From: an uncultured Thermoleophilia bacterium
GTDB lineage: Bacteria > Actinomycetota > Thermoleophilia > UBA2241
Length of the DNA: 64,000 bases
Assembly (NCBI GenBank): GCA_903927755.1
Contig: CAIYOD010000072.1
Location: 53,254-117,253, forward strand
Direction of reading: 5' to 3'
Under the pieces are notes generated by a model. The model worked only from the letters and a program-made list of their open reading frames with translations, did no database searches and was not told the origin of the DNA. Below, one piece after another: positions 9,568 through 26,620 of the stretch; positions within the stretch are counted from its first letter, which is position 1, and the number at the start of each line of letters is the position of its first letter. The position numbers and the translations under genes were made by a program.

Positions 9568-10515
9568 TCACCACTTGAACTCGTTCTCGTTCACCCCAGT
9601 GTCCACGTCGGCGAGCAGGTCGTCGCTCTCGCCGAAGAGGATGCGTTCGCGCCGCCGCGGCTGGTCGTCCTCGGCGGCGTCTCCGTCATCGGCCGGACGA
9701 GCGGCCGTGATCTCCGGGTCGTCGCCCGGCGGCCGGCCCGGCTGGCTCATGGTGTCGTCCGGCGCCGGCGACGGGGCTTCACGCCGCGCAGCCTCTCCTT
9801 CAGGCGCAACGTGCACGCCCGCCTGAACACCTCCGCGTCCGCGCGCCGGCGCGACAGCGGGAGTGTCGGGCACCGGTCGCTGCGGCGTCTCCCGCTGGGT
9901 AACGGGGGGCTTCGGCGGCTGCACAGGCGCGACCTCGACACGCTCGGGCTCCGGCGCTCGAACCTCGGGAGTCTCGGGACGCTCCGGCACGGATTCGCGC
10001 GCTATGGCCTCCTTGATGGCCTCCGCGTGCCGCGAGAAGTCCGGCGCCGGCGGGACGGCCGCCGCCGCTACGTCTGGCTGCTCCTGCAGCAACCTCATGT
10101 AGCCCTCGAGGAGCTGCCGGAACTTGAAGCGGAAGTCCTCCTCGGCACTCTTGAGCTTGGCCATCGACTGCTCGATCGCCTGGCGCTCGGAGTAGGCCTC
10201 GTTCACCATCTGGCGCGACTTGAGCTCCGCGTCCTGCAGGATGAGCTGCGACTGCTTGTTGGCGTTCTGCTTCTGCTCCTCGGCGCTGGCCTGCGCGTTG
10301 ATCAGGGTCTTCTGCAGCGTGTCCTCGATGCGCTTGTAGCCGGCGACCTTCTCCTCCAGCGCCTCGACCCGGTCCTGCAGGTCGATGTTCTCCTTGAACA
10401 GGCGCTCGTACTCGTCGGCGATCTGATCCAGGAATTCGTCAACCTCGACGTCGGCATAGCCGCGCATCCCGCGCTTGAACTCCTTGTGGCGGATGTCGAG
10501 CGGTGTGAGCTTCAT
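9568..10515 (-). CDS. divIVA: cell-division protein DivIVA (Wag31-like)
   Basis: MKLTPLDIRHKEFKRGMRGYADVEVDEFLDQIADEYERL, followed by a coiled coil and a Pro/Ala-rich C-terminal tail. Confidence 0.93.
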   Translation of the reverse strand: MKLTPLDIRHKEFKRGMRGYADVEVDEFLDQIADEYERLFKENIDLQDRVEALEEKVAGYKRIEDTLQKTLINAQASAEEQKQNANKQSQLILQDAELKSRQMVNEAYSERQAIEQSMAKLKSAEEDFRFKFRQLLEGYMRLLQEQPDVAAAAVPPAPDFSRHAEAIKEAIARESVPERPETPEVRAPEPERVEVAPVQPPKPPVTQRETPQRPVPDTPAVAPARGRGGVQAGVHVAPEGEAARREAPSPAPDDTMSQPGRPPGDDPEITAARPADDGDAAEDDQPRRRERILFGESDDLLADVDTGVNENEFKW

Positions 10516-10655
10516 CTTCTCCCCTCTCGTCGCGCGAGCCCTGCCGCGCGTCGTCTCCTGCTCTCTAAGTCCGACCGCCGCGGGGCCCTTCGGGCCGGCG
10601 GCCGCTCAATGGCGCTCCGTGTCCTCGTGGCCCTCCGTACAGTAGTGCGACGCGG

Positions 10656-11441
10656 CTACTTGAGTTCCTTGGCGCGCTCGGCGGCCGCATGCACGGCGAG
10701 CGCTACGGCCTCCGCGATATCGCGTTCCTCGAAGGCCGTGATGGCGGCTGCGGTCATGCCGCCGGGTGTCGCGGCGGAGGTGATCACGGCGTCCGGATCG
10801 CCTTCGCGGGCGATGACGGCTGCCGCTCCGTACACGCCGGCGACCGCGAGGCGGCGCGCCACGTCCCCGTCCAGCCCGCGTCGCACCGCCGCCCGCGCGA
10901 AGTCGCGCACCAGCATCGCGAGCATCCCAGGCATGCAGCCGGCGACGGCCGTGGCCGAGTCGAAGTGCAGCTCGTCGAGCACCACCACGTCCCCGGCGAG
11001 CGCGAACAGGTCTTCGGTGGCGCGCTCCTGTCCGCCCAGCGTGCCGGGCACGAAGAGGAACACGCCGAGCCCCAGGCTCGCGGCGACGTTGGGCATGACG
11101 CGCGCGACGTGGGCGTCGGCTGGCAGCGCCGCGCGGAGCTCCTCGAGCGTGACGCCCGCGGCGACCGACACGAGAGCGCGAGCGCCGAGCAGCGGAGCCG
11201 TCTCGGCGAGTACGGCGGCGACGTGCTGCGGCCGCACCGCGACGATGACGACGTCGGAAGCCTCGACGAGACCGGCAAGATCGGCGGCGACCGACGCGCC
11301 GGTCTCTTCGGCGGCCTTTGCCGCGGCGTCGGCGGACACGTCGAGGTAGGTCAGTTCGGGGGGGTCGGAGAGATTCTGCCGGCTCCATCCCTGCCCCAGA
11401 GCCCGGGCGATGTGCCCCGCTCCGATGAACCCGACCCTCAT
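10656..11441 (-). CDS. proC: pyrroline-5-carboxylate reductase
   Basis: 261 aa, MRVGFIGAGHIARAL Rossmann N-terminus. Family-level match. Confidence 0.85.
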   Translation of the reverse strand: MRVGFIGAGHIARALGQGWSRQNLSDPPELTYLDVSADAAAKAAEETGASVAADLAGLVEASDVVIVAVRPQHVAAVLAETAPLLGARALVSVAAGVTLEELRAALPADAHVARVMPNVAASLGLGVFLFVPGTLGGQERATEDLFALAGDVVVLDELHFDSATAVAGCMPGMLAMLVRDFARAAVRRGLDGDVARRLAVAGVYGAAAVIAREGDPDAVITSAATPGGMTAAAITAFEERDIAEAVALAVHAAAERAKELK

Positions 11442-11501
11442 CGCGGCCCCCCGGCGCGAGGCGCCTGAGGCAGGCCGGGCACGATGCGGGAGCGCCCGGG
11501 G

Positions 11502-12038
11502 TCAGAACTGATTGAAGAAGCCCTTCTCGATGAGCCTCGCGCGCTCCTCCGCCGAGACCTCGACGTTGCGCGGGGTGAGCAGGAAGATCTTCTCGCCGAC
11601 CCGCTGCATGCCGCCGTCCATGGCGTACGTGAGGCCGCTGCAGAAGTCGATGAGTCGCTTGGCCAGTTCAGTGTCCGAGCCCTGCAGGTTGATGATCACC
11701 GGGACGTCGACCTTGAACTTGTCGGCGATCTGCTGGGCGTCGTTGAAGTTCTTCGGGATGACGAGGTGGACCTCGACGCGCGCCGGGCGAGCCGGCTCGA
11801 GGGCGCGCACGTTCTGCTGGGACGACGACGGGGCGCGGCGGCGCGGTTCGTCGGCGAAGATGTCGTCGTAGTCGTTGCGCCCCTTGCCGCTGTTCAGCTT
11901 GCGGACGTTCGGGCGCTCCTGATACGAGCGTTCGAGCTCTTCGTGCGGCGCAAGAGTCTCATCCTCGTCGTACTCGTCCTCGTCATCGGCGATGCCGAAG
12001 TAGACCGCCACCTTGTGCCACGAATCGCCTAGGCCCAT
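11502..12038 (-). CDS. sepF: cell-division protein SepF
   Basis: 178 aa with an acidic N-terminus. The C-terminal SepF domain ...VHLVIPKNFNDAQQIADKFKVDVPVIINL is present. Confidence 0.92.
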   Translation of the reverse strand: MGLGDSWHKVAVYFGIADDEDEYDEDETLAPHEELERSYQERPNVRKLNSGKGRNDYDDIFADEPRRRAPSSSQQNVRALEPARPARVEVHLVIPKNFNDAQQIADKFKVDVPVIINLQGSDTELAKRLIDFCSGLTYAMDGGMQRVGEKIFLLTPRNVEVSAEERARLIEKGFFNQF

Positions 12039-12056
12039 CAGGTCCCTCCCTACGGG

Positions 12057-12749
12057 TCAGAAGAGCACGCTCCCGACACGGACGATGGTCGCCCCTTCCT
12101 GGACGGCCACGTCGTAGTCGGCACTGGTACCCATCGATAGCTGCTCGAAAGTATACGTTCCGCTCCACGTGGTAGAAAGCCGTTCGGCCGACTCGCGCGC
12201 CCGCACGAAGAAGGGGCGCGCCTCCTCGGGGTCGTCGAAGAGCGGCGGCATGCACATGAGGCCGGTGAAGCGCACCTTGGGGCACGCCGCCGCCTCCTCG
12301 AGGAAGGCGTCGACCTCCGCGAGCGGCACGCCGCTCTTGCTCTCCTCCCCGCCGATGTTGACCTCCAGCAGTACGTCGGTGGCGTTCGCGGCCCTCGCCT
12401 CGATCTCCTGCACGACGCTCATGCTCCCGACTGAATGGATGAGGCTGACGATCGGCAGCACGAGCTTCGTCTTGCGACTCTGCAGGTGACCGATGAAGTG
12501 GTAGTCGAAGGCGTCGCCGTAGAGCTCGTGCTTGGCCACGAGGTCCTGGGCGCGGTTCTCGCCGATCAGGCGGATGCCGGCGTCGCGCAGCGCGCCCAGG
12601 TGCTCCGCGGCCACGTACTTGGTGGCGACGAGGACGCGCACGTCTGCCGGGTCGCGGCCAGCCGTCCCGGCCGCCTCGGCGACCCGGCTCTCGACCTCCG
12701 CGAACCGCTCACGGACCTTGTCCACATCGGGGATGAACTGTCTGACCAC
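12057..12749 (-). CDS. yggS: YggS-family pyridoxal-phosphate homeostasis protein
   Basis: 230 aa. The TKYV motif and FIGHLQSRK (PLP-binding Lys) are present. Confidence 0.9.
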   Translation of the reverse strand: MVRQFIPDVDKVRERFAEVESRVAEAAGTAGRDPADVRVLVATKYVAAEHLGALRDAGIRLIGENRAQDLVAKHELYGDAFDYHFIGHLQSRKTKLVLPIVSLIHSVGSMSVVQEIEARAANATDVLLEVNIGGEESKSGVPLAEVDAFLEEAAACPKVRFTGLMCMPPLFDDPEEARPFFVRARESAERLSTTWSGTYTFEQLSMGTSADYDVAVQEGATIVRVGSVLF

Positions 12750-12785
12750 GTCTTTCCTCCTCGGCGGCCTACTTCTGGGGCCGCC

Positions 12786-13577
12786 CTACGCTTCCTGCCG
12801 CCAGGCCACCGCCAGATGCCGCCCGGTCTTCCCCGCATCGCGGCGGTGCGAGAAGAAGCGGGCGTCGGAGGCGGTGCACAGCCCGGCGACCGAGACGGCG
12901 GCAGACGGCACGCCCGCCGACTCGAGGTCTCTGCGCGCGCAGCGCCAGAGGTCCACGGTCGCGGCGCCGGCGGAGCCCGGGAACCGGGCCTCGAACCGGC
13001 GCCGGAGTTCGTCGTCCACGGCGAAGCAACACGGGCCGATGCTCGGCCCCACGGCGGCCGCCACGAGGCGGCCGCGGCCGGCGAGCTCGGCCGCCGCCTT
13101 GCCGACGATGCCGGCCATCATGCCGCGCCAGCCGGCATGGACCGTGGCGAGCAGCGGGCCTTTCTCCCCCTCCGCAACGATCACGACCGGCACGCAGTCG
13201 GCGTAGCTGATGACGAGGCCGAGACCCGCCTCCGCGGTGAGCAGGCCGTCGTGCTCCCTGATCACGGTGGGGCTGTCGAGCGCGCCACGCCCTGCATCCG
13301 CCTCGCCGATCCACGCGAGCGAGGTCCCGTGGACCTGTCCGGGGACCACGAGCCGCTCCGGCGGCAGGCCGATCGCCGCGCACAGGCGGCGCCGGTTCTC
13401 CACGACGTGCTCGCGCTCGTCGTTCACCGACAAGCCGAGGTTGAGGGTATCGAACGGCGGCGCGGAGACCCCGCCCACGCGCGACGGGAACGCGGCGATC
13501 ACGCCGCCGGCGCGCCACTCGAGCCACTCGACCCCGCCGGCCTCGCGCCACCGCATGGCCGGCGTCACCAGAACCAT
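12786..13577 (-). CDS. pgeF: YfiH/PgeF family purine nucleoside phosphorylase (DUF152, laccase-domain protein)
   Basis: Internal start MVLVTPAMRW, 263 aa. Motifs GQVHGT and YADCVPV. Confidence 0.88.
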   Translation of the reverse strand: MVLVTPAMRWREAGGVEWLEWRAGGVIAAFPSRVGGVSAPPFDTLNLGLSVNDEREHVVENRRRLCAAIGLPPERLVVPGQVHGTSLAWIGEADAGRGALDSPTVIREHDGLLTAEAGLGLVISYADCVPVVIVAEGEKGPLLATVHAGWRGMMAGIVGKAAAELAGRGRLVAAAVGPSIGPCCFAVDDELRRRFEARFPGSAGAATVDLWRCARRDLESAGVPSAAVSVAGLCTASDARFFSHRRDAGKTGRHLAVAWRQEA

Positions 13578-14218
13578 CCCCCCGGCAGAAGGAGATTCCT
13601 GAGCGCGTCCACCACGGCGCCGAACGTGGCCTCGTAGAAGCCGGGGACGGCGATCATGAGCAGGAACAACCCCATGAAGGCGTAGTTGCCGTAGCGGTCG
13701 AGCTCCGCCCACTTGCGGTAGGTCGCGCGCGGCAGGAACCCGCCGAGGACGCGCGACCCGTCCAGCGGCGGGATCGGGATCAGGTTCAGCGTTCCAAGGA
13801 TCACGTTGAGCACGAAGAGCATCCAGAACGCCTGCAGCAGGAACGCGCTCCAGGTGTAGGTGAGCCAGATGCAGCCGGCGGCGACCAGTACGAGGGCGAA
13901 ATTGGTGATCGGGCCCGCCGCGCCCACCCAGGCCATGCCGCGCTGCCCGTCCCTGAAGAAGCGCGGGTCCACGGGCACCGGCTTCGCCCAGCCGAAGAAG
14001 AAGCTGCCGCCGGACCCCAGGAACGTGACCACGAGCATGATGGTGCCCCACGTGTCCAGGTGCTTGATGGGATTCAGCGTGAGGCGGCCGTGCGCCTTCG
14101 CCGTCGGATCGCCGAGCCGGTAGGCGACCCAGCCGTGCGCCAGCTCGTGCAGCACGAGGCTGACGATGAGCAAGGGCGAGACGAGGAGGAACTCGAGGAG
14201 CAGGTCCGAGTCGATCAC
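13565..14218 (-). CDS. site-2 protease family (M50) membrane metalloprotease
   Basis: 217 aa, multi-transmembrane, HELAHG zinc motif. Confidence 0.85.
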   Translation of the reverse strand: MIDSDLLLEFLLVSPLLIVSLVLHELAHGWVAYRLGDPTAKAHGRLTLNPIKHLDTWGTIMLVVTFLGSGGSFFFGWAKPVPVDPRFFRDGQRGMAWVGAAGPITNFALVLVAAGCIWLTYTWSAFLLQAFWMLFVLNVILGTLNLIPIPPLDGSRVLGGFLPRATYRKWAELDRYGNYAFMGLFLLMIAVPGFYEATFGAVVDALRNLLLPGGWFW

Positions 14219-16836
14219 GCGCGCTCCCGCATCCTGGCCGCCGCAAGGAGTTCCTCGTCCCGCTCATGGACCACACCGTTCAGCTTGAGGTGCAGCACGC
14301 TGCGCAGCACCTCACCCATACGCGGCCCGGAACTGAAGCCCAACTCCAGGAGGTCGTCGCCGCCGATGTCCAGGCGCACGTGACGCGTGACGTCCAGGAA
14401 GTGCGCCAGCCGGTCGGCGGCGATGCCGGAGCCGTCCAGCGTCATCGCCGCCAGCACGGCCTCAAGCGGCTCGCCGGCGGCCAGGTCGTACAGTCCCGCC
14501 TCGCTCGGCCCGCGGGCGACGCGATCCACGATTCGCCGGCCGACGACCAGCGCCCGCTCGAGGACGCGGGCGTCCACGCTGCGCACGCGCATGCGCACGG
14601 CCCAGGCGGCGATCTCCTCCGGATCCAGGTCCATCAGCAGCCAGACGAGGCGGAGCCGCCAGCGCGGCAGCTCATCCTCGAGCCGGTGCGCATCGCGCAG
14701 CCCGTCGGCGCGCCGCACCAGCCGGCGGGTGTCCGCGTCCACGCGCAACCGGCCGTGGATCGCCGGCCACACGCCGAGCTCCTCGGCGCGCCGCAGGGCG
14801 AAGTCGACCTTCTCTTCGTCCAGCAGGCTGACGAGCTCGTCGCGCAGCCGCGCCGAGGAGAGGTCGCCGACGAGGTCCATGGTGCAGCAGGCGCGGGCCA
14901 GGTTGAGCGTGTGCCCGTCCATGCGCAGGCCGTAGCGACTCTCGTAGCGGATCGCGCGCAGGATGCGCGTGGGGTCCTCGATGAAGCTGAGGTTGTGCAG
15001 GACGACGATGCGGCGGGCGTCCAGGTCCTCGCGCCCGCCGAAGTAGTCGAAGAGGTCACCGAACGTCTCGGGCTTGAGCGAGACCGCCATCGCGTTGATG
15101 CTGAAGTCGCGGCGGGCGAGGTCGCTGCGGATGCCGGCGTGCTCGACCTTGGGGAGCGCGCCGGGGTACTCATAGGATTCGGCCCGTGTGGAGGCGACGT
15201 CGACGCGCAGCCTCCCCGCGGCTCCCTCGGAGACGACCACCGCCGTGCCGAACTTCTCGTGCGGCCGCACGTGGCCCTTGAGTCGCGCGGCCAGCTCAGT
15301 CGCGAAGGCGATGCCATCGCCCTCGACGGCGAGGTCGACGTCGAACCCCGGCTCGCGCAGCAGCAGGTCGCGGACGGCGCCCCCGACCAGGTAGCAGCCG
15401 CGCACGCCGGCGGCGACCGCCTGGACATGACGGAGCAGGTCGTCCAGGCCGAGCTCGCCGAGCAGCCCTGCGAGGTTCGCGGTCACCGGCGCCGCGGGCT
15501 CGCGCCGGGGAGCCCCGGCCACCGACCGGCGCGACACGACGCCGGTGAGCGTCTCCACGGGCACCGGCTCGTCCTCTCCAGACTCGGGGTCCGCGGCCAC
15601 CACCGGCAGCCAGCCGACCTCGTCCTGCGCCAGCCTGAGCGCCACGCGCTCCAGCGGCGTCTGCGCCCACACGAGCGGGACGCGCGTGGTCATGACGGCC
15701 TTGACGGGAGCGTGCCCGAGTCCGTGCGCCGACGCTCGCTCCAGATCCGCCAGGGCCACGCGTCCGACGAGGAGGCCGTCGCGCAGGACGCCGACGCCGC
15801 CGAGGCCGTCGCGCCGGCAGAGCAGCGAGGCTTCGTCGACCGACGTGGTGTCGCCGACCATGGGGGGACCCGGCTCGAGAGCGTCGAGCGCGATCCTGGT
15901 CGGCGCGACCGCCGCCGGCGCCGCGGCGGCCACGGCCGCGGCGACCTCGTCCAAGGAGCCGTCCTTCACGACCGCGGATGCGGCGGCCGTGTGCCCGCCG
16001 CCGCCCACGGCGCGAAGCGCCGCGGCGACGTCCACGCGGCCGCCGCGGCTCCGGGCAGTGACGAAGACGCGTCCCTCCATCTCCACGAGCAGGAAGAAGG
16101 CGTCGCACCCGGTCAGGTCCATGACCCGATGGGCCACCACGCTGACGCCCTCCACGTACAGGTCCTCGTGCAGCGCCGAGAGCAGGACCGACGCCTCTGG
16201 GATCGGCAGCTCGACCGCCGCCTCCAGCGCTCCGGCGAGTGTGATGCGCTGCTCCGGCGTCAAGGCGTTGGTGAGCCACTTCTCGAGGAGTTCGGTGTCG
16301 GCGCCGGCGCGCATGCAGTAGGCGAGCGCCTCGGCGTCGCGGGTCGTCGTCGTCGCGAAGGTGAGCGACCCCGTGTCCTCGTGGATCCCGAGTGCGAACA
16401 CCGTCGCCTCGAACGGCGTCACCGGGATGCCCCGTTCGGCGATGATCCGCACGAGCAACGTCACCAGCGAGCCGTCTCCGGAGCTCACCAGCGCGTCGGG
16501 GTCCAGATAGTCCGGAAGGTCGCCCGGATGCGCGTGATGGTCGAACGCGACGACCTGGACGTCGGGACGGCCGCAGAGATCACCGAGGTCGCCAAGGCGG
16601 TTGGCGTGCACCGTGTCGACCAGGATGAGCCGGCGGACGCTGTCGCGGTCCACGTCCGTCGGGTCGACGACCGGGATGGCATCCGCATACAGCGCCTGGA
16701 ACTCGCGCACGTTGCGGTTGACGGCTCCGCCGAGGCTGATCTGCGCCTCGGGATACAGCTTGTGCGCCGCGACCATGGCGGCGAAGGCGTCGAAGTCGGT
16801 GTTGGTGTGCGTGGCGATGAGCTCAGGGGTGCGCAT
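14215..16836 (-). CDS. cca: multidomain DHH-DHHA1 phosphoesterase / CBS pair / CCA-adding tRNA nucleotidyltransferase (poly(A) polymerase family)
   Basis: 873 aa. DHH motif VVAFDHHAH and DHHA1 GGGHTAAAS at the N-terminus. C-terminal half has the GGAVRD...DVDLAV nucleotidyltransferase head and RNA-binding region. ATGA overlap with the S2P gene. Confidence 0.85.
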   Translation of the reverse strand: MRTPELIATHTNTDFDAFAAMVAAHKLYPEAQISLGGAVNRNVREFQALYADAIPVVDPTDVDRDSVRRLILVDTVHANRLGDLGDLCGRPDVQVVAFDHHAHPGDLPDYLDPDALVSSGDGSLVTLLVRIIAERGIPVTPFEATVFALGIHEDTGSLTFATTTTRDAEALAYCMRAGADTELLEKWLTNALTPEQRITLAGALEAAVELPIPEASVLLSALHEDLYVEGVSVVAHRVMDLTGCDAFFLLVEMEGRVFVTARSRGGRVDVAAALRAVGGGGHTAAASAVVKDGSLDEVAAAVAAAAPAAVAPTRIALDALEPGPPMVGDTTSVDEASLLCRRDGLGGVGVLRDGLLVGRVALADLERASAHGLGHAPVKAVMTTRVPLVWAQTPLERVALRLAQDEVGWLPVVAADPESGEDEPVPVETLTGVVSRRSVAGAPRREPAAPVTANLAGLLGELGLDDLLRHVQAVAAGVRGCYLVGGAVRDLLLREPGFDVDLAVEGDGIAFATELAARLKGHVRPHEKFGTAVVVSEGAAGRLRVDVASTRAESYEYPGALPKVEHAGIRSDLARRDFSINAMAVSLKPETFGDLFDYFGGREDLDARRIVVLHNLSFIEDPTRILRAIRYESRYGLRMDGHTLNLARACCTMDLVGDLSSARLRDELVSLLDEEKVDFALRRAEELGVWPAIHGRLRVDADTRRLVRRADGLRDAHRLEDELPRWRLRLVWLLMDLDPEEIAAWAVRMRVRSVDARVLERALVVGRRIVDRVARGPSEAGLYDLAAGEPLEAVLAAMTLDGSGIAADRLAHFLDVTRHVRLDIGGDDLLELGFSSGPRMGEVLRSVLHLKLNGVVHERDEELLAAARMRERA

Positions 16837-16882: not shown

Positions 16883-19045
16883 TCATGCCTTGAGGAGCCA
16901 GCCCAGCTCGTGACCGAAGGCGTCCTCGACGGCCGCCTTGAGCGGCGCGCTGGCGGGAGCGAGCAGCCCCGGGTCCGCCGTGAGCAACTCGGCGGCCAGC
17001 TCCCTCGCCCGCAGGAGCGCGACGCGGTCGCGCGCCAGGCGGGCGAGCTTCAGGTCCGGCACGCCCGCCTGGCGCGATCCCATCACCTGGCCTTCGCCGC
17101 GGATCTCCAGGTCTCTGTCTGCCAGCTCGAACCCGTCGTTCGTTTCGAGGAGGGCCTCGAGGCGGGCCTGCGAGCTGCCGGTCTCCGCGGTCGCGAACAG
17201 CAGGCAGTACGACTTCTCGCTGCCCCGTCCGACGCGCCCCCGGAGCTGGTGCAACTGCGCCAGCCCGAAGCGCTCCGCTCCTTCCACGATCATCACCGTG
17301 GCGTTGGGCACGTCGATGCCGACCTCGATCAGGCTCGTCGCGACCAGCACGTCGAGCTCCCCGCTCTTGAACGACCGCATGACGTCGTCCCGCTGGGCGG
17401 ACTTGAGCTGGCCGTGCGCCACCGCGACGCGTGCGTCGCGGAACGGCCCGGCCTGCAGACGTTCGGCTTCCGCCACCGCCGTGGCAGCGGAGATCGACTC
17501 GGACTCGTCGATGGCCGGGCACACCACGTAGACCTGACGGCCCCTCGCGATCTGCTTGCGCACGAAGTCGTAGCCGACCTCCCGCTTGTCCTCGTCCACG
17601 AGCCGGGTGACGACCGGCTGCCGACCCGCCGGTACGCCGGCGATGGTGGTGACGTCCAGATCCCCGTACACGGTCAGCGCGAGCGTGCGCGGGATTGGTG
17701 TGGCCGTCATGTGCAGGACGTGCGGGGCGCCGCCGGCGCGCTCCGTCCGGCGGACCAGGGCGTCGCGCTGTTCGACGCCGAAGCGGTGCTGCTCGTCCAC
17801 GACCACGAGGGCGAGGCCGGCGAAGCGCACGTCCTCCTGCAGGAGCGCGTGCGTGCCGATGGCGATGCGCGCCTCGCCGGAGGCGATACGCGCCAGCGCC
17901 TCTCGCCGCTCCCTGGCCGTCAGGGACGCCGTGACGAGCTCGGCCGGTGCGAGCGCGCCGACGAGCCGAGCCGCGGTCTCAGCATGCTGGGCGGCGAGCG
18001 TCTCCGTCGGCGCCAGGAGCACGCCCTGCAGCCCGGCCTCAGCGGCCCTGATCAGGCAGTAGAGGGCGACGACCGTCTTGCCCGAGCCGACGTCGCCCTG
18101 CAGCAGGCGCCGCATCGGCGTCTCGCGGCGCAGATCGGCCTCGAGTTCGTCCAGCGCCGCGAGCTGGTGCGCCGTCAGCTCGAAGGGCAAGCCGTCGAGG
18201 AAGGCCCGGCTGAGGTCTGCCGGCGCCGGCAGCGCCGGCGCGCTGTAGAGCTGCTGCTGCTCCTGCTTGTGCAGCAGCAGCCCGACCTGCATCAGCAACA
18301 GTTCCTCGAGGACGAGGCGCTCGCGGGCCAGCTTCGCCTCCGCGAGCGTGCGCGGCAGGTGCACGGCCGTGACCGCGTCGGCGCGGCCGGGCAGTCGCTC
18401 GCGCACGAGCAGCGCCGACGGCAGCGGATCCGGCAGGCGCCGCATGGCCGGGGCGACGGCGTGCACGAGGCCGCGAAGGAGCTTCGCCGAGACCTGCTCG
18501 CTCGCGGGGTACACCGAGACGACGCCCTCGGTGTGCACCCCTTCTCCGCTCTCCTCTTCGAGGATCTCGTGGCCCTTGACCGCGAACGACTGACGCCCGC
18601 CCTGGGGCCGGAAGGTGCCGCGCAGGCTCAGCCGCATGCCCTCCTGGAGGACTCTGGTCAGATAGCGCTGGTTGAACCACACCGCCTCCACCGCCCCGGT
18701 GTCGTCGCGGACCACCACGCGCACGATGTCCACCCGGCGGCGAGCGGTGCGGTCGGCGCTGACGCGAACGACCTCTCCGCGGATGGTGGCCTCCTCCCCG
18801 ACCTTGAGGTCGCGGATGCTCTTGCGGTCGCGGAAGTCCTCGTAGCGGCGCGGGAAGTGCTCGATGAGGTCGCCGACCGTCTCGAGGCCGAAGGTCGCGA
18901 GCCGGCGTGCCACGGCGGCCGTGACGTGCTCGAGGTCGGCGAGCGGACGTGCAAAGGCGGCCGGGTCGAACGAGAGGCGGGTGACCGGCGGTCGTTGGTC
19001 GTACCGACCGCCGCCGAAGCGATGCAGAGGTGGCTGCCCGGTCAC
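16883..19045 (-). CDS. recG: ATP-dependent DNA helicase RecG
   Basis: 720 aa with a wedge domain. Helicase motifs GDVGSGKT, DEQHRFG and TATPIPRT. Confidence 0.95.
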   Translation of the reverse strand: MTGQPPLHRFGGGRYDQRPPVTRLSFDPAAFARPLADLEHVTAAVARRLATFGLETVGDLIEHFPRRYEDFRDRKSIRDLKVGEEATIRGEVVRVSADRTARRRVDIVRVVVRDDTGAVEAVWFNQRYLTRVLQEGMRLSLRGTFRPQGGRQSFAVKGHEILEEESGEGVHTEGVVSVYPASEQVSAKLLRGLVHAVAPAMRRLPDPLPSALLVRERLPGRADAVTAVHLPRTLAEAKLARERLVLEELLLMQVGLLLHKQEQQQLYSAPALPAPADLSRAFLDGLPFELTAHQLAALDELEADLRRETPMRRLLQGDVGSGKTVVALYCLIRAAEAGLQGVLLAPTETLAAQHAETAARLVGALAPAELVTASLTARERREALARIASGEARIAIGTHALLQEDVRFAGLALVVVDEQHRFGVEQRDALVRRTERAGGAPHVLHMTATPIPRTLALTVYGDLDVTTIAGVPAGRQPVVTRLVDEDKREVGYDFVRKQIARGRQVYVVCPAIDESESISAATAVAEAERLQAGPFRDARVAVAHGQLKSAQRDDVMRSFKSGELDVLVATSLIEVGIDVPNATVMIVEGAERFGLAQLHQLRGRVGRGSEKSYCLLFATAETGSSQARLEALLETNDGFELADRDLEIRGEGQVMGSRQAGVPDLKLARLARDRVALLRARELAAELLTADPGLLAPASAPLKAAVEDAFGHELGWLLKA

Positions 19046-23424: not shown

Positions 23425-24714
23425 CTAGCCTTCGAGGCCCTCGTCCTGCCCGAAGAGGTCCTCGTGCTCGAGCATGTGGCCCATCTTGTCGCGCTTGGTC
23501 CGCAGGTAGCACATGTTGTCCTCCTGCGGAGCGATCTCGATCTGCTCGCGGCCGGTGACGCGCAGGCCGTAGCCTTCGAGCGCGACGATCTTCTTGGGAT
23601 TGTTGGTCATGATGCGGATGGTCGAGAGGCCGAGATCGGCGAGGATCTGGGCGCCGGTTCCGTAGTCACGCAGGTCCGGCGCGAAACCGAGCTCCACGTT
23701 GGCCTCCACAGTGTCGTAGCCCTGCTCCTGCAGCGCATAGGCCTTGAGCTTGTTGATGAGGCCGATGCCGCGACCCTCCTGGCGCATGTACAGGACAACT
23801 CCGAGACCCTCGGCCTCGATGCGGCGCATCGCCTCGGCCAGCTGGTCGCCGCAGTCGCAGCGCAGCGAACCGAAGGTGTCGCCCGTCAGGCACTCCGAGT
23901 GGACGCGCACGAGCACGTCCTTCTTGCCGGCCACGTCGCCCTTCACGATCGCCACGTGGTGGCTGCCGTCGAGCACCGACTCGTAGCCGACGGCCTTGAA
24001 GTCGCCGTACTTGGTCGGCATGGAGACGGTCGCGGCGCGGCGCACCAGGTGTTCGTTGCGGCGCCGGTACTTGATGAGGTCGGCCACGGTGATGATCTTG
24101 AGGCCGTGCTTGCGCGCATACGGGATGAGGTCGGGCACGCGCGCCATGGTGCCGTCGTCGTTCATGATCTCGCAGATCACGCCCGCTGGGTTGAGGCGCG
24201 CGAGGCGCGCCAGATCGACGGCCGCTTCGGTCTGGCCGGAACGCTCGAGGACTCCTCCGGGCCGGGCCATGAGCGGGAACACGTGGCCCGGCTGTACGAG
24301 ATCGGCGGGCCCGCACTCCGGGTCGATGGCGACCTGGATGGTGTGCGCGCGGTCAGCCGCCGAGATGCCGGTCGTCACGCCTTCCCGTGCCTCGACCGAG
24401 ACGGTGAAGGCGGTCTGCAGACGCGCCTCGTTGTGCGCGGTCATGGGCGGGAGATCGAGCTCGCCGCACCGCTGCGGCGTCAGCGACAGGCAGATGAGAC
24501 CGCGCCCTTCCTTGGCCATGAAGTTGATGTTGTCGGCGGTGGCGAACTGGGCGGCCATCGTGAGGTCCCCCTCGTTCTCGCGATCCTCGTCGTCGCAGAC
24601 GATCACCATGCGTCCCGCGCGCAGGTCGTCAATCGCCTCGTCGATGGTCGAAAACGGCTCCCGCGGCACAGACTCCGCCGCGCCGGTCGTGTCGTCGTGG
24701 TGGTCCACCGTCAT
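23425..24714 (-). CDS. ribBA: bifunctional 3,4-dihydroxy-2-butanone-4-phosphate synthase / GTP cyclohydrolase II
   Basis: 429 aa. N-terminal DHBP synthase domain and a C-terminal GCH-II domain with a CxGDxxGSLRCDC zinc site. Confidence 0.95.
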
Positions 24715-25352
24715 CAGAACCCCGCTTCCGCTAGCTTCTCCCAGGTGAGTCCGCCGTCGGGCTTGCGCCCGGCGACGAACGAGTAGACGTATTTCGCGAT
24801 CAGGTCCGCCTCGAGATTGACTCGAGACCGGGTGGTGAGCCGCCCCAGCGTGGTGACCGCCGCGGTGTGCGGGATCAGGGACACGCGGACGCGGTCGCCG
24901 GTGACGCCGACGATCGTGAGGCTGACGCCGTCCAGGGCGATCGACCCCTGGTCGACGGAGACGCGAGCCACGGCTTCCGGCGCCTCGATCTCCACGACGA
25001 GGGCGTTGTCCTCCGGCGTGACCGCCGTGACGACGCCGACGCCATCGATATGCCCGCTCACGAGGTGTCCACCGAGGCGCGAGCTCAGCGTCATCGCCCG
25101 CTCGAGGTTGAGCCGGTCGCCCGGCCGCCGCTCGGCCAGGGTGGTGCGGCGGACGGTCTCCGGCATGGCGTCGGCGGTGAACCCGCCCGTGCGCAGCGAC
25201 GTGACCGTGAGGCAGACGCCGTCGGTGAGGATGCTGTCGCCGACGGCGGCGTCCTCGGTGACGGTCGTCGCCGCGATGTCGAGCACGACGCTCTGGGCGC
25301 CCGACGCGAGGCCGCGCAGGGTCCCGACCTCCTCGACGATGCCGGTGAACAT
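24714..25352 (-). CDS. ribE: riboflavin synthase alpha subunit
   Basis: Start [10 protein letters not shown], two lumazine-binding repeats, 212 aa. Confidence 0.93.
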
Positions 25353-25354
25353 GC

Positions 25355-26443
25355 TCAGCCCTGCCTGTGCACGACGGTGCCGCTGAGGAGCAGGTCGTCG
25401 CAGACCGGGCGCCACTCGACGTCCTTGAGGCGCCAGGCGCCGTCGACCGCGGAGACGGCCGGCGCCGCGAACAGGTCGGGCGCTCCGCGCCCGACGATCA
25501 GCGGCGCCACGAAGAGCAGAACGCGGTCGATGAGATCCGCCGCGAGGAGCTCGCCGGCGAGCGTGGGGCCTCCCTCGCAGAGGATGTCCAGGAGGCCCAT
25601 TCCCGCCAGCGCCTCGAGAGTGGCTCGCAGACCGCCCTCCCCTGCTTCGATAAGCTCGGCGCCGCGTGCGTCGAGCAACCTCCGCGCGGCGTCCGATACC
25701 TGGTCAACCACGACGATCGTCCGCACCTGTCTCGCGCCGGTCAGGACCTTCGCGTCGGCCGGCAGGATGCCGTCGTGACTGATCACCACGCGCACCGGGT
25801 CCCGGCCGTCGGCGAGACGGACGGTGAGCTCGGGGTCGTCGCGGCGTACCGTCCCTGCGCCGACCATCACCGCGTCGACGCGCGAGCGCAGTTCGTGCAC
25901 GGCCCGCCGGCTGTCGAGGCAGCTGATCCAGCGGGCGTCGCCTCCGGCGGCGGCGACCTTGCCGTCGAGAGTGACCGCGGCCTTGTAGGTCACCAGCGGC
26001 AGGCCGGTGCGTTGGAACTTCAGAAACGGCGCGTTCTGCCGGCGGGCGCGCTGCGCCCACGTGGCCCCGGCAAGCTCTACGTCAACCCCACCCTCACGGA
26101 GCTTCCGCAGCCCGCGGCCGTTCACCATGGGGTTGGGGTCGCCGAGCGCGATGACCGCGCGGGCGATGCCGGCCGCCACGAGCGCGTCCGCGCAGGGCGG
26201 CGTCTTGCCGTGGTGGCTGCACGGCTCGAGCGTACAGTAGAGCGTGGCGCCTCGGGCGCGCTCACCGGCTTCGGCGAGTGCGTTGGCCTCGGCGTGCGGC
26301 CGGCCCGGCGCGAGGTGCCAGCCTCTGCCGACCACCTCTTCGTCCTTGACCAGCACGGCGCCGACCAGCGGATTGGGATGCGTGCCGCCGTGGCCTCGCT
26401 CGGCCAAGGTGAACGCCTCTTCCAGATACCTTTCGTCGTCCAT
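25355..26443 (-). CDS. ribD: bifunctional diaminohydroxyphosphoribosylaminopyrimidine deaminase / 5-amino-6-(5-phosphoribosylamino)uracil reductase
   Basis: [30 protein letters not shown] aligns to the B. subtilis RibD start. HAE and PCxxC deaminase motifs. The upstream ATG at 26464 lies inside the leader hairpin. Confidence 0.92.
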
Positions 26444-26464
26444 ACGCAAAACGCCCCGAAGCAT

Positions 26465-26620
26465 GCGCTCCAGGGCGGACGACGCCGAGGCGCCGAACCT
26501 GCTTCTCTCATCCGGACTGTGACCGTCGGCCCAGGAATCTCACCTGGTCGGCCCCTCTCGGGGTTCGCGGGCTGTACCGCCGGTGGGGACTTTCACCCCG
26601 CCCTGAAGCAGTGGTTGATC
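26465..26620 (-). ncRNA. FMN riboswitch (RFN element) with expression platform
   Basis: The reverse complement carries the conserved FMN-riboswitch segments (GGGGUGAAAGUCCCCACCGGCGGU, CCGACCAGGUGAGAUUCC and GUCCGGAUGAGAGAAG). It sits directly 5' of ribD. Confidence 0.85.

Follow-up and report, generated by a model that had tools for sequence, protein, structure and literature searches.

A fused DHH/DHHA1, CBS and nucleotidyltransferase protein from a Thermoleophilia bacterium is most likely a further member of the AaL/TmCCA subfamily of tRNA nucleotidyltransferases

What is the function of a single bacterial polypeptide in which a DHH/DHHA1 phosphoesterase module and a pair of CBS domains precede a class-II nucleotidyltransferase? 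This question is raised by a gene at positions 14215..16836, minus strand (-), of a 64-kb window, by which we mean the whole stretch of DNA that was analysed (64,000 nucleotides of contig CAIYOD010000072.1 from an uncultured Thermoleophilia bacterium, assembly GCA_903927755.1). A previous sequence-only reading had treated the fusion as noteworthy. We found that the fusion is not new, as a family described earlier has it as its standard architecture; this family includes AaL of Aquifex aeolicus, TmCCA of Thermotoga maritima and the NCBIfam model NF041569. The window protein is most likely an uncharacterised further member of the AaL/TmCCA subfamily. Our preferred reading, to which we assign a probability of roughly 85%, is that it is a housekeeping class-II enzyme of the AaL/TmCCA type that adds A or CCA to tRNA and carries the usual Nrn/CBS extension, and that this extension would be an active hydrolase.

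The gene is a single unbroken ATG-to-TGA open reading frame (ORF) of 873 codons, with the TGA stop codon within the coordinates. The sequence-only reading had given an 873-amino-acid ORF at these positions without stating its strand, and this ORF is real. The plus-strand reading of 14215-16836 was rejected, as the protein it would encode, rich in Arg, Gly and Ala, is not that of the gene. On the minus strand, the GC content at third codon positions (GC3) was 0.93 compared with 0.47 at second positions (GC2), which is the pattern of genuine genes in a genome of approximately 70% GC; the GC content of the window was also approximately 70%. In addition to the ORF list, its translation and GC3, the gene is supported by Pfam, NCBIfam and PDB matches and by orthologues. 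Among the protein clusters listed, more than 100 contained full-length homologues with 59-93% identity and 100% coverage, and full-length orthologues were found at 80 loci in metagenome-assembled genomes (MAGs) of Thermoleophilia and Gaiellales. Thus, the ORF is not a product of chance, nor is it a chimera of the assembly. The nearest genomic loci were in MAGs labelled Thermoleophilia or Actinomycetota (85-93% identity), with Gaiellales at 46-49%, and an exact-sequence look-up found no identical copy of the 873-amino-acid protein on record. At several loci from long-read MAGs (L023, L026, L033, L036, L040, L041, L045 and L046, at about 10000-12600), tblastn split the orthologue into overlapping pieces in differing frames. 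These splits are most likely caused by frameshift sequencing errors and do not represent real pseudogenes, and the database proteins P0086, P0103, P0107 and P0117 (576-850 amino acids, partial coverage) probably have the same frameshift origin.

The order of domains in the protein is DHH, DHHA1, two CBS motifs and then the head and neck, followed by the body and tail, of a class-II nucleotidyltransferase, and a Pfam domain scan agreed with the sequence-only reading on the DHH/DHHA1, CBS and nucleotidyltransferase assignments. DHHA1 (residues 216-304) scored 33.1 bits, above its cutoff of 25.9, the CBS match scored 31.4 bits in the full-length scan, and the PolyA_pol head (residues 481-610) scored 96 bits. 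Weak matches were obtained to PolyA_pol_RNAbd (residues 640-690) and tRNA_NucTran2_2 (residues 813-866), and the Pfam scan of the 873-residue protein gave no family match to an HD domain at E≤0.1. The DHH, GGGH, GGAVRD and DxD motifs quoted in the sequence-only reading were also located, as D99-H100-H101, within GGGGH 278-282, at 485-490 and at D499/D501, respectively. The top NCBIfam model was NF041569 ('A-adding tRNA nucleotidyltransferase'), a curated profile whose 880 positions span the entire DHH-CBS-transferase architecture. This model scored 503 bits and was colinear with the protein from residue 6, model positions 3-394 matching residues 6-399 alongside a second matching stretch. The protein has the colinear DHH-DHHA1-CBS-CBS-PolyA_pol architecture of about 860-890 amino acids that marks the AaL/TmCCA subfamily with an N-terminal Nrn and CBS extension.

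Conservation was examined in a family alignment of 114 sequences, consisting of the window protein and 113 full-length representatives with 30-45% identity to it; all counts out of 114 given below refer to this alignment. An AlphaFold2 (AF2) model was built on 50 orthologues, with a mean predicted local distance difference test (pLDDT) of 83.7 and a predicted template modelling score (pTM) of 0.49. Within Thermoleophilia, conservation was 84% in the nucleotidyltransferase head, 80% in the DHH domain and 54% in the CBS pair, which is the lowest region in the clade. Family-wide identity to the window protein was 46% in the head and neck, 39% in the DHH domain and lowest, at 21%, in the body and tail.

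The head and neck comprise residues 476-680 (14797..15411 (-)) and, besides the 96-bit PolyA_pol match, have 46-47% identity to TmCCA and AaL. Motif A consists of GGAVRD at residues 485-490 plus the DxD carboxylates D499 and D501, and D546 provides the third carboxylate. Motif B is RRD (residues 575-577) and motif D is E620-D621-P-T-R624 (EDxxR), the two motifs that are described in the literature as the protein template for CTP and ATP. These nucleotidyltransferase motif residues are invariant in 112-114 of the 114 family members. Motifs A and B are separated by a flexible loop, residues 552-575 (15112..15183 (-)), which is disordered in the AF2 model (pLDDT of about 35) and contains P558-G-A-L-P562, for which the family consensus is P-A-A-L-P. 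According to the literature, the flexible loop is needed for addition of A76 in characterised relatives, and a short or absent loop is a hallmark of CC-adding enzymes. Because the long flexible loop is present, the window protein is not of the CC-adding type.

The body and tail domains comprise residues 681-873 (14218..14796 (-)), to which the weak tRNA_NucTran2_2 match belongs. The best PDB sequence match in a phmmer search was TmCCA 3H37 (E 1e-50), which aligned with residues 481-864 and hence from the head through the tail, and the next matches were AaL 4WBY and 1VFG (E 1e-45). When the AF2 model was searched with Foldseek, the C-terminal half had a TM score (TMt) of 0.85 to AaL 4WBY, with a root-mean-square deviation (rmsd) of 3.2 Å, and of 0.73-0.76 to TmCCA; the CC-adding enzyme AaS and other CCA enzymes had lower scores. 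All of these solved structures cover the C-terminal half only. As the TmCCA alignment extends to residue 864 and the fold matches AaL and TmCCA, the last 250 residues, though diverged and rich in Arg, represent by homology the tRNA-binding body and tail. The literature describes the class-II C-terminus as binding tRNA and as far less conserved than the rest of the enzyme, in agreement with the 21% family-wide identity of this region.

The choice to be made for the transferase is between A-only and full CCA addition and not between CCA and poly(A), and from the sequence the odds for the window enzyme are roughly even. In the review literature, the large enzyme of A. aeolicus adds only A76 and is paired with a separate CC-adding enzyme, while its single homologue in T. 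maritima adds the complete CCA; the same literature holds that the structural determinants separating A-adding from CCA-adding enzymes are not understood. We rejected similarity of the head and neck as a discriminator, as identity is 47% to TmCCA and 46% to AaL. The PAALP motif has been called characteristic of A-adding enzymes in the literature. A PAALP-type loop was also rejected as a discriminator, as it occurs family-wide and the near variant PAKLP is present in T. maritima. Among the cluster representatives, none was close enough to be identified as the full-length T. maritima or A. aeolicus protein for a comparison of DHH motifs, the best being 42-52% identical. Genes for tRNA were sought in the 64-kb window to see whether CCA is encoded, and none were found. 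The ARAGORN predictions 'tRNA-Arg(cct)' at L007 17299-17386 and 'tRNA-Val(gac)' at L077 9617-9705 (88-89 nucleotides) were rejected as false positives, being GC-rich, coding-like sequence with no Rfam tRNA match.

The N-terminal module consists of a DHH catalytic domain, residues 1-200 (16237..16836 (-)), and a DHHA1 substrate-binding domain, residues 201-310 (15907..16236 (-)). The former was delimited with the Pfam DHH match at residues 6-151, alignment to GdpP and Rv2837c and its conserved ligands, and the latter with the Pfam DHHA1 match, the R262-S-R264 and GGGGH motifs and Foldseek. By alignment, the metal ligands are H10, D14, D16, D74, H100 and D154. In Bacillus subtilis NrnA, two Mn2+ ions are held by H20, D24, D26, D80, H103 and D156 (PMC5593865), and the substrate is contacted by H104, RxRxR and GGGH. 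The window protein has counterparts of all six ligands in the residues just named, and of the substrate-contacting sites in H101, R262/R264 and G279-G-G-H282. Most of these positions are highly conserved: H10 is present in 111, D14 in 112 and D16 in 113 of the 114 family members, and DHH in all of them, while D74 and D154 are each present in 106, the other 8 having Glu. On the substrate side, G281-H282 is found in all 114 members and R262 in 112, and position 264 is Arg in 62 and Lys in 17. R80 aligned with an Arg of Rv2837c and is present in 109 of the 114.

Residues 52-312 aligned with the GdpP catalytic domain, Rv2837c/NrnA, TmPDE and DhhP with E values of 1e-10 to 1e-6. Foldseek of the N-terminal half gave TMt values of 0.77 to Rv2837c and 0.76 to TmPDE (range 0.75-0.77), with the GdpP catalytic domain also matched. 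Thus, the N-terminus has a predicted DHH/DHHA1 fold with every metal ligand in place. The sequence-only reading had named a different fold or the loss of metal-binding residues as refuting its domain reading, and neither was observed. Because no metal or substrate residue is missing and nearly all of the 114 diverse members share them, the DHH/DHHA1 module is probably an active phosphoesterase. However, the protein scored only 25 bits against the NrnA equivalog model NF053633, whose cutoff is 350 bits, and its RxRxR motif is partial. These results indicate that it is not an NrnA orthologue, although the fold and motifs are present. No second DHH or CBS paralogue was found by tblastn in the 64-kb window or in 80 related loci.

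The CBS pair (Bateman module) occupies residues 311-445, approximately (15502..15906 (-)), with CBS1 at about 313-372 and CBS2 at about 376-441. A scan of residues 305-460 alone identified two CBS stretches with a score of 38.4 bits, and the beta-alpha-beta-beta-alpha pattern occurs twice in this region of the AF2 model. The CBS motif G-h-h-[ST]-x-x-[DN] contacts the ribose of adenosyl ligands. Family-wide, this motif is conserved in both repeats: G358 and G432 are present in all 114 members, S/T361 in 99, D364 in 88, T/S435 in 109 and D/N438 in 110. In the window protein, however, the motifs read G-R-V-A-L-A-D (A361) in CBS1 and G-V-V-S-R-R-S (S438) in CBS2. Among the 50 Thermoleophilia orthologues, Ala361 is found in 37 and Ala or Ser438 in 34. 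CBS2 also contains an acidic, clade-specific and variable insert (residues 414-428, window positions 15550-15597 (-)) that has no counterpart in about 110 of the 114 family members. Together, the CBS2 insert and the loss of ribose-binding residues suggest relaxed or altered ligand binding in the Thermoleophilia lineage. The sequence-only reading had proposed that adenylate ligands on the CBS pair might gate the enzyme. Given the motif, such gating is plausible for the family as a whole, but it is doubtful for the Thermoleophilia lineage, in which the motif residues have been replaced, and the proposal is weakened to that extent.

The fusion is widespread. With the N-terminal 460 residues as query, a library clustered at 50% identity yielded 3604 representatives at E≤1e-3, of which at least 675 reached E≤1e-30. 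The 150 with the highest scores were listed, and almost all of these were 850-900 amino acids, the length of the fused protein. A word-indexed search found more than 1387 relatives, of which the best 120 share the same Pfam set; many of these 120 carry the JGI label 'tRNA nucleotidyltransferase (CCA-adding enzyme)'. In the literature, 'Nrn and CBS domains' have already been described on such enzymes, and bacterial enzymes that add A or CCA typically have N-terminal extensions with DHHA1/Nrn and CBS domains. Erber et al. state, with reference to Toh 2009, Tomita 2004 and Yamashita 2015, that the extension domains are not needed for transferase activity, and the extension is dispensable for CCA or A addition in T. 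maritima and A. aeolicus. In a 2025 paper on NrnB, tRNA nucleotidyltransferases figure as one of the DHH-DHHA1 architectures already known. Our literature searches found no study that assigns a function to the N-terminal extension.

Our preferred reading, that of a housekeeping A- or CCA-adding tRNA nucleotidyltransferase, leads to the following proposed mechanism. The body and tail would bind the acceptor and T-arm of tRNA, by homology with the characterised enzymes. The two-metal site formed by D499, D501 and D546, together with the template E620-D621-x-x-R624, would then add A76 to tRNA-CC, or alternatively the whole CCA. Residues 1-445 would comprise a two-metal DHH/DHHA1 phosphoesterase of the NrnA/CnpB/GdpP type followed by the CBS pair. 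Judging from its intact catalytic set, this module may hydrolyse short 5'-phosphorylated nucleotides or oligonucleotides, or RNA 3' ends, and it would act alongside the transferase without being required for nucleotidyl transfer.

Several observations weigh against this reading. The score of 503 bits to NF041569 is far under the equivalog cutoff of 1440 bits, so the protein is not filed as an A-adding equivalog. The Pfam DHH match, at 27.9 bits, is marginally below the gathering score of 28.1. With a pTM of 0.49, the relative placement of the N- and C-terminal halves in the AF2 model is unreliable. Bacillus NrnA has an RxRxR motif that the window protein retains only in part, as R262 and R264 are followed by a third Arg at position 267 instead of 266, and the substrate may therefore differ from nanoRNA. 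No second class-II transferase, whether a CC-adding partner or an actinobacterial Cca, was found by tblastn in the 64-kb window. The same search of 80 related loci, 1.49 Mb in total, yielded only frameshift-split copies of the target gene. Finally, to our knowledge no actinobacterial member of the family has been characterised biochemically.

Other explanations differ from the preferred reading chiefly in the role of the N-terminal module. The module could be an enzyme of the NrnA/CnpB/GdpP kind, either a general nanoRNase/pAp phosphatase or a phosphodiesterase for pApA/c-di-AMP. In that case its fusion to the transferase would be regulatory or incidental, for instance by linking second-messenger turnover or nucleotide recycling with tRNA maintenance, and the CBS pair would act as a ligand sensor. 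The identity of the top sequence and fold matches of residues 52-312 is consistent with this explanation, as is retention of GGGH and R262/R264 on the nucleotide-binding face of DHHA1 and of R80. The low NrnA equivalog score and the degenerate ribose-binding residues of the CBS pair in the Thermoleophilia clade speak against it, and the near-exclusive association with a transferase among the best 150 representatives listed argues for a tRNA-linked role; we consider a general nuclease or phosphodiesterase possible but somewhat unlikely. A tRNA-linked role could consist of healing or trimming tRNA 3' ends, the module removing a 3'-phosphate, a 2',3'-cyclic phosphate, or damaged or extra nucleotides before the fused transferase rebuilds CCA; the sequence-only reading had put forward this idea of trimming and rebuilding. 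Among the same 150 representatives, this DHH subfamily is almost solely found fused to a transferase, its catalytic residues are near-invariant and conservation of the DHH domain is close to that of the polymerase head. Moreover, as an HD domain was not detected, the enzyme has no other repair domain. An analogy could be drawn with the HD phosphohydrolase of E. coli Cca, a type of enzyme that NCBIfam calls 'multifunctional CCA addition/repair protein'. Nevertheless, the literature describes the extension as having no impact on transferase activity, the nearest relatives with solved structures have dinucleotides, nanoRNA or cyclic dinucleotides as substrates and not tRNA, and the inter-domain geometry of the AF2 model is unreliable. 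For these reasons we hold healing or trimming to be unlikely.

The module might instead be catalytically silent, which would be in keeping with its dispensability for CCA or A addition in T. maritima and A. aeolicus and with the presence of DHHA1 domains in AlaRS. However, the six metal ligands, the second His of DHH and the His of GGGH are retained in 106-114 of the 114 members at an overall identity of 30-45%, which would be unexpected for a scaffold and renders a silent module quite improbable. With respect to the C-terminal half, a poly(A) polymerase resembling PcnB would share the Pfam head domain, which is common to poly(A) polymerase I (PAP I), and could account for the weak match to TIGR01942 (70 bits). 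We judge this extremely improbable. PcnB models scored 42-70 bits against cutoffs of 306-702 (for TIGR01942, 305.65), compared with 503 bits for the A-adding model. A regex search found neither the PAP I signature, [LIV][LIV]G[RK][RK]Fx[LIV]h[HLQ][LIV], nor any G[RK][RK]F, and the corresponding region reads RPHEKFGTAVV. The body and tail aligned with TmCCA through residue 864, and the closest folds were those of AaL and TmCCA. The sequence-only reading had described the C-terminus as diverged, with CCA or poly(A) addition unclear, a view that these results supersede.

The extension, first noted some 25 years ago, is dispensable for nucleotide addition in vitro. Its role is a question for the whole family and is not specific to this locus. 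If the healing or trimming explanation were true, a widespread family would become a one-polypeptide machine for tRNA-end repair, and a question that has stood since 2001, the role of the extension in A- and CCA-adding enzymes, would be answered. Conservation of the catalytic residues at the level of the polymerase, together with near-exclusive fusion among the best 150 representatives listed, makes an enzymatic, tRNA-linked role plausible. Regarding annotation, we suggest tRNA nucleotidyltransferase, AaL/TmCCA type, with A- versus CCA-specificity left undefined. Poly(A) polymerase, 'CBS domain-containing protein' and 'hypothetical protein', which are labels on some database entries, are unsuitable names.

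Immediately downstream of the target gene is a gene for a membrane metalloprotease of the M50 (site-2-protease-like) type, 217 amino acids in length (13565..14218 (-)), which matched Pfam Peptidase_M50 and in which the HELAH and NxxPxxxLDG motifs are intact. The GTG start codon of this gene overlaps the TGA stop codon of the target by 4 nucleotides (GTGA), and because of this overlap the two genes are probably co-translated. Their adjacency is kept in 47 related loci. Some database gene calls fuse the target with the M50 protein (P0037, 1035 amino acids). Many M50 proteases bear a CBS pair of their own; the 217-amino-acid protein encoded here is without one. On the other side, 46 nucleotides upstream of the target, is the gene for the RecG helicase (16883..19045 (-)), which matched Pfam RecG_wedge, DEAD, Helicase_C and RecG_dom3_C. 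Synteny of recG and the target is kept in 46 loci, the order recG, target, M50 being found in 46-47 Thermoleophilia loci.

The gene order leading to the target is priA, fmt, rpe, an FMN riboswitch, ribD-ribE-ribBA, fakA, degV and recG, and the M50 gene is followed by an unassigned ORF, yggS, sepF, proC, divIVA, lspA, rluD, pyrR, pyrB and carB. Window positions 382-32702 (-) thus form about 32 kb of unbroken, co-directional core genes, from priA through yggS, sepF and divIVA, genes of the distal division cluster, to pyrR-pyrB-carB. Gaiellales also retain the yggS-sepF-divIVA block downstream of the target. The FMN riboswitch (RF00050, 110 bits; 26496-26614 (-)) lies directly upstream of an operon that consists of ribD (25355-26464 (-)), ribE (24714-25415 (-)) and ribBA (23425-24714 (-)); an FMN riboswitch is also present in the related locus L007 (505-623). 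The unassigned ORF between the M50 gene and yggS (12769-13551 (-)) would encode 260 amino acids; it has no Pfam match and failed the GC3 filter, and its coding call is uncertain. Counterparts with 38-69% identity are present in 23 related loci. The genes around the target show no sign of a mobile element or defence island, nor of a specialised operon.

Comparison with known systems places the window protein closest to the A- and CCA-adding enzymes. PcnB shares the class-II head (PF01743), but the window protein lacks the PAP I signature and its model scores are far below the cutoffs. E. coli-type Cca also combines a class-II enzyme and an additional metal-dependent phosphohydrolase in one polypeptide. 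This is a functional analogy only, since the phosphohydrolase of Cca is a C-terminal HD domain, in contrast to the N-terminal DHH/DHHA1 module of the window protein, which scored 66 bits against a cutoff of 451 for PRK10885. NrnA, CnpB (Rv2837c), the GdpP catalytic domain and TmPDE have the same two-domain fold as the N-terminal module and share its metal ligands, its DHH and GGGH motifs and, in part, RxRxR. They differ in having 20-22% identity and in being stand-alone or signalling proteins, whereas the module described here is fused to a CBS pair and a transferase.

AaL has the same class-II head, neck, body and tail, with approximately 45-46% identity in the head and neck, and is the best fold match. 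It also shares the long flexible loop with its P-G-A-x-P motif. An N-terminal extension is described in the literature as common among A-adding enzymes. AaL differs in that its phmmer alignment ends at residue 676, so that the body and tail are not aligned, in that it works with a separate CC-adding enzyme, and in phylum, the window protein being from Actinomycetota. TmCCA, with 47% identity in the head and neck and 36% overall, is the best PDB sequence match from head to tail. It differs in being the sole enzyme of T. maritima, where it adds all three nucleotides, and in its loop, which reads PAKLP where the window protein has PGALP.

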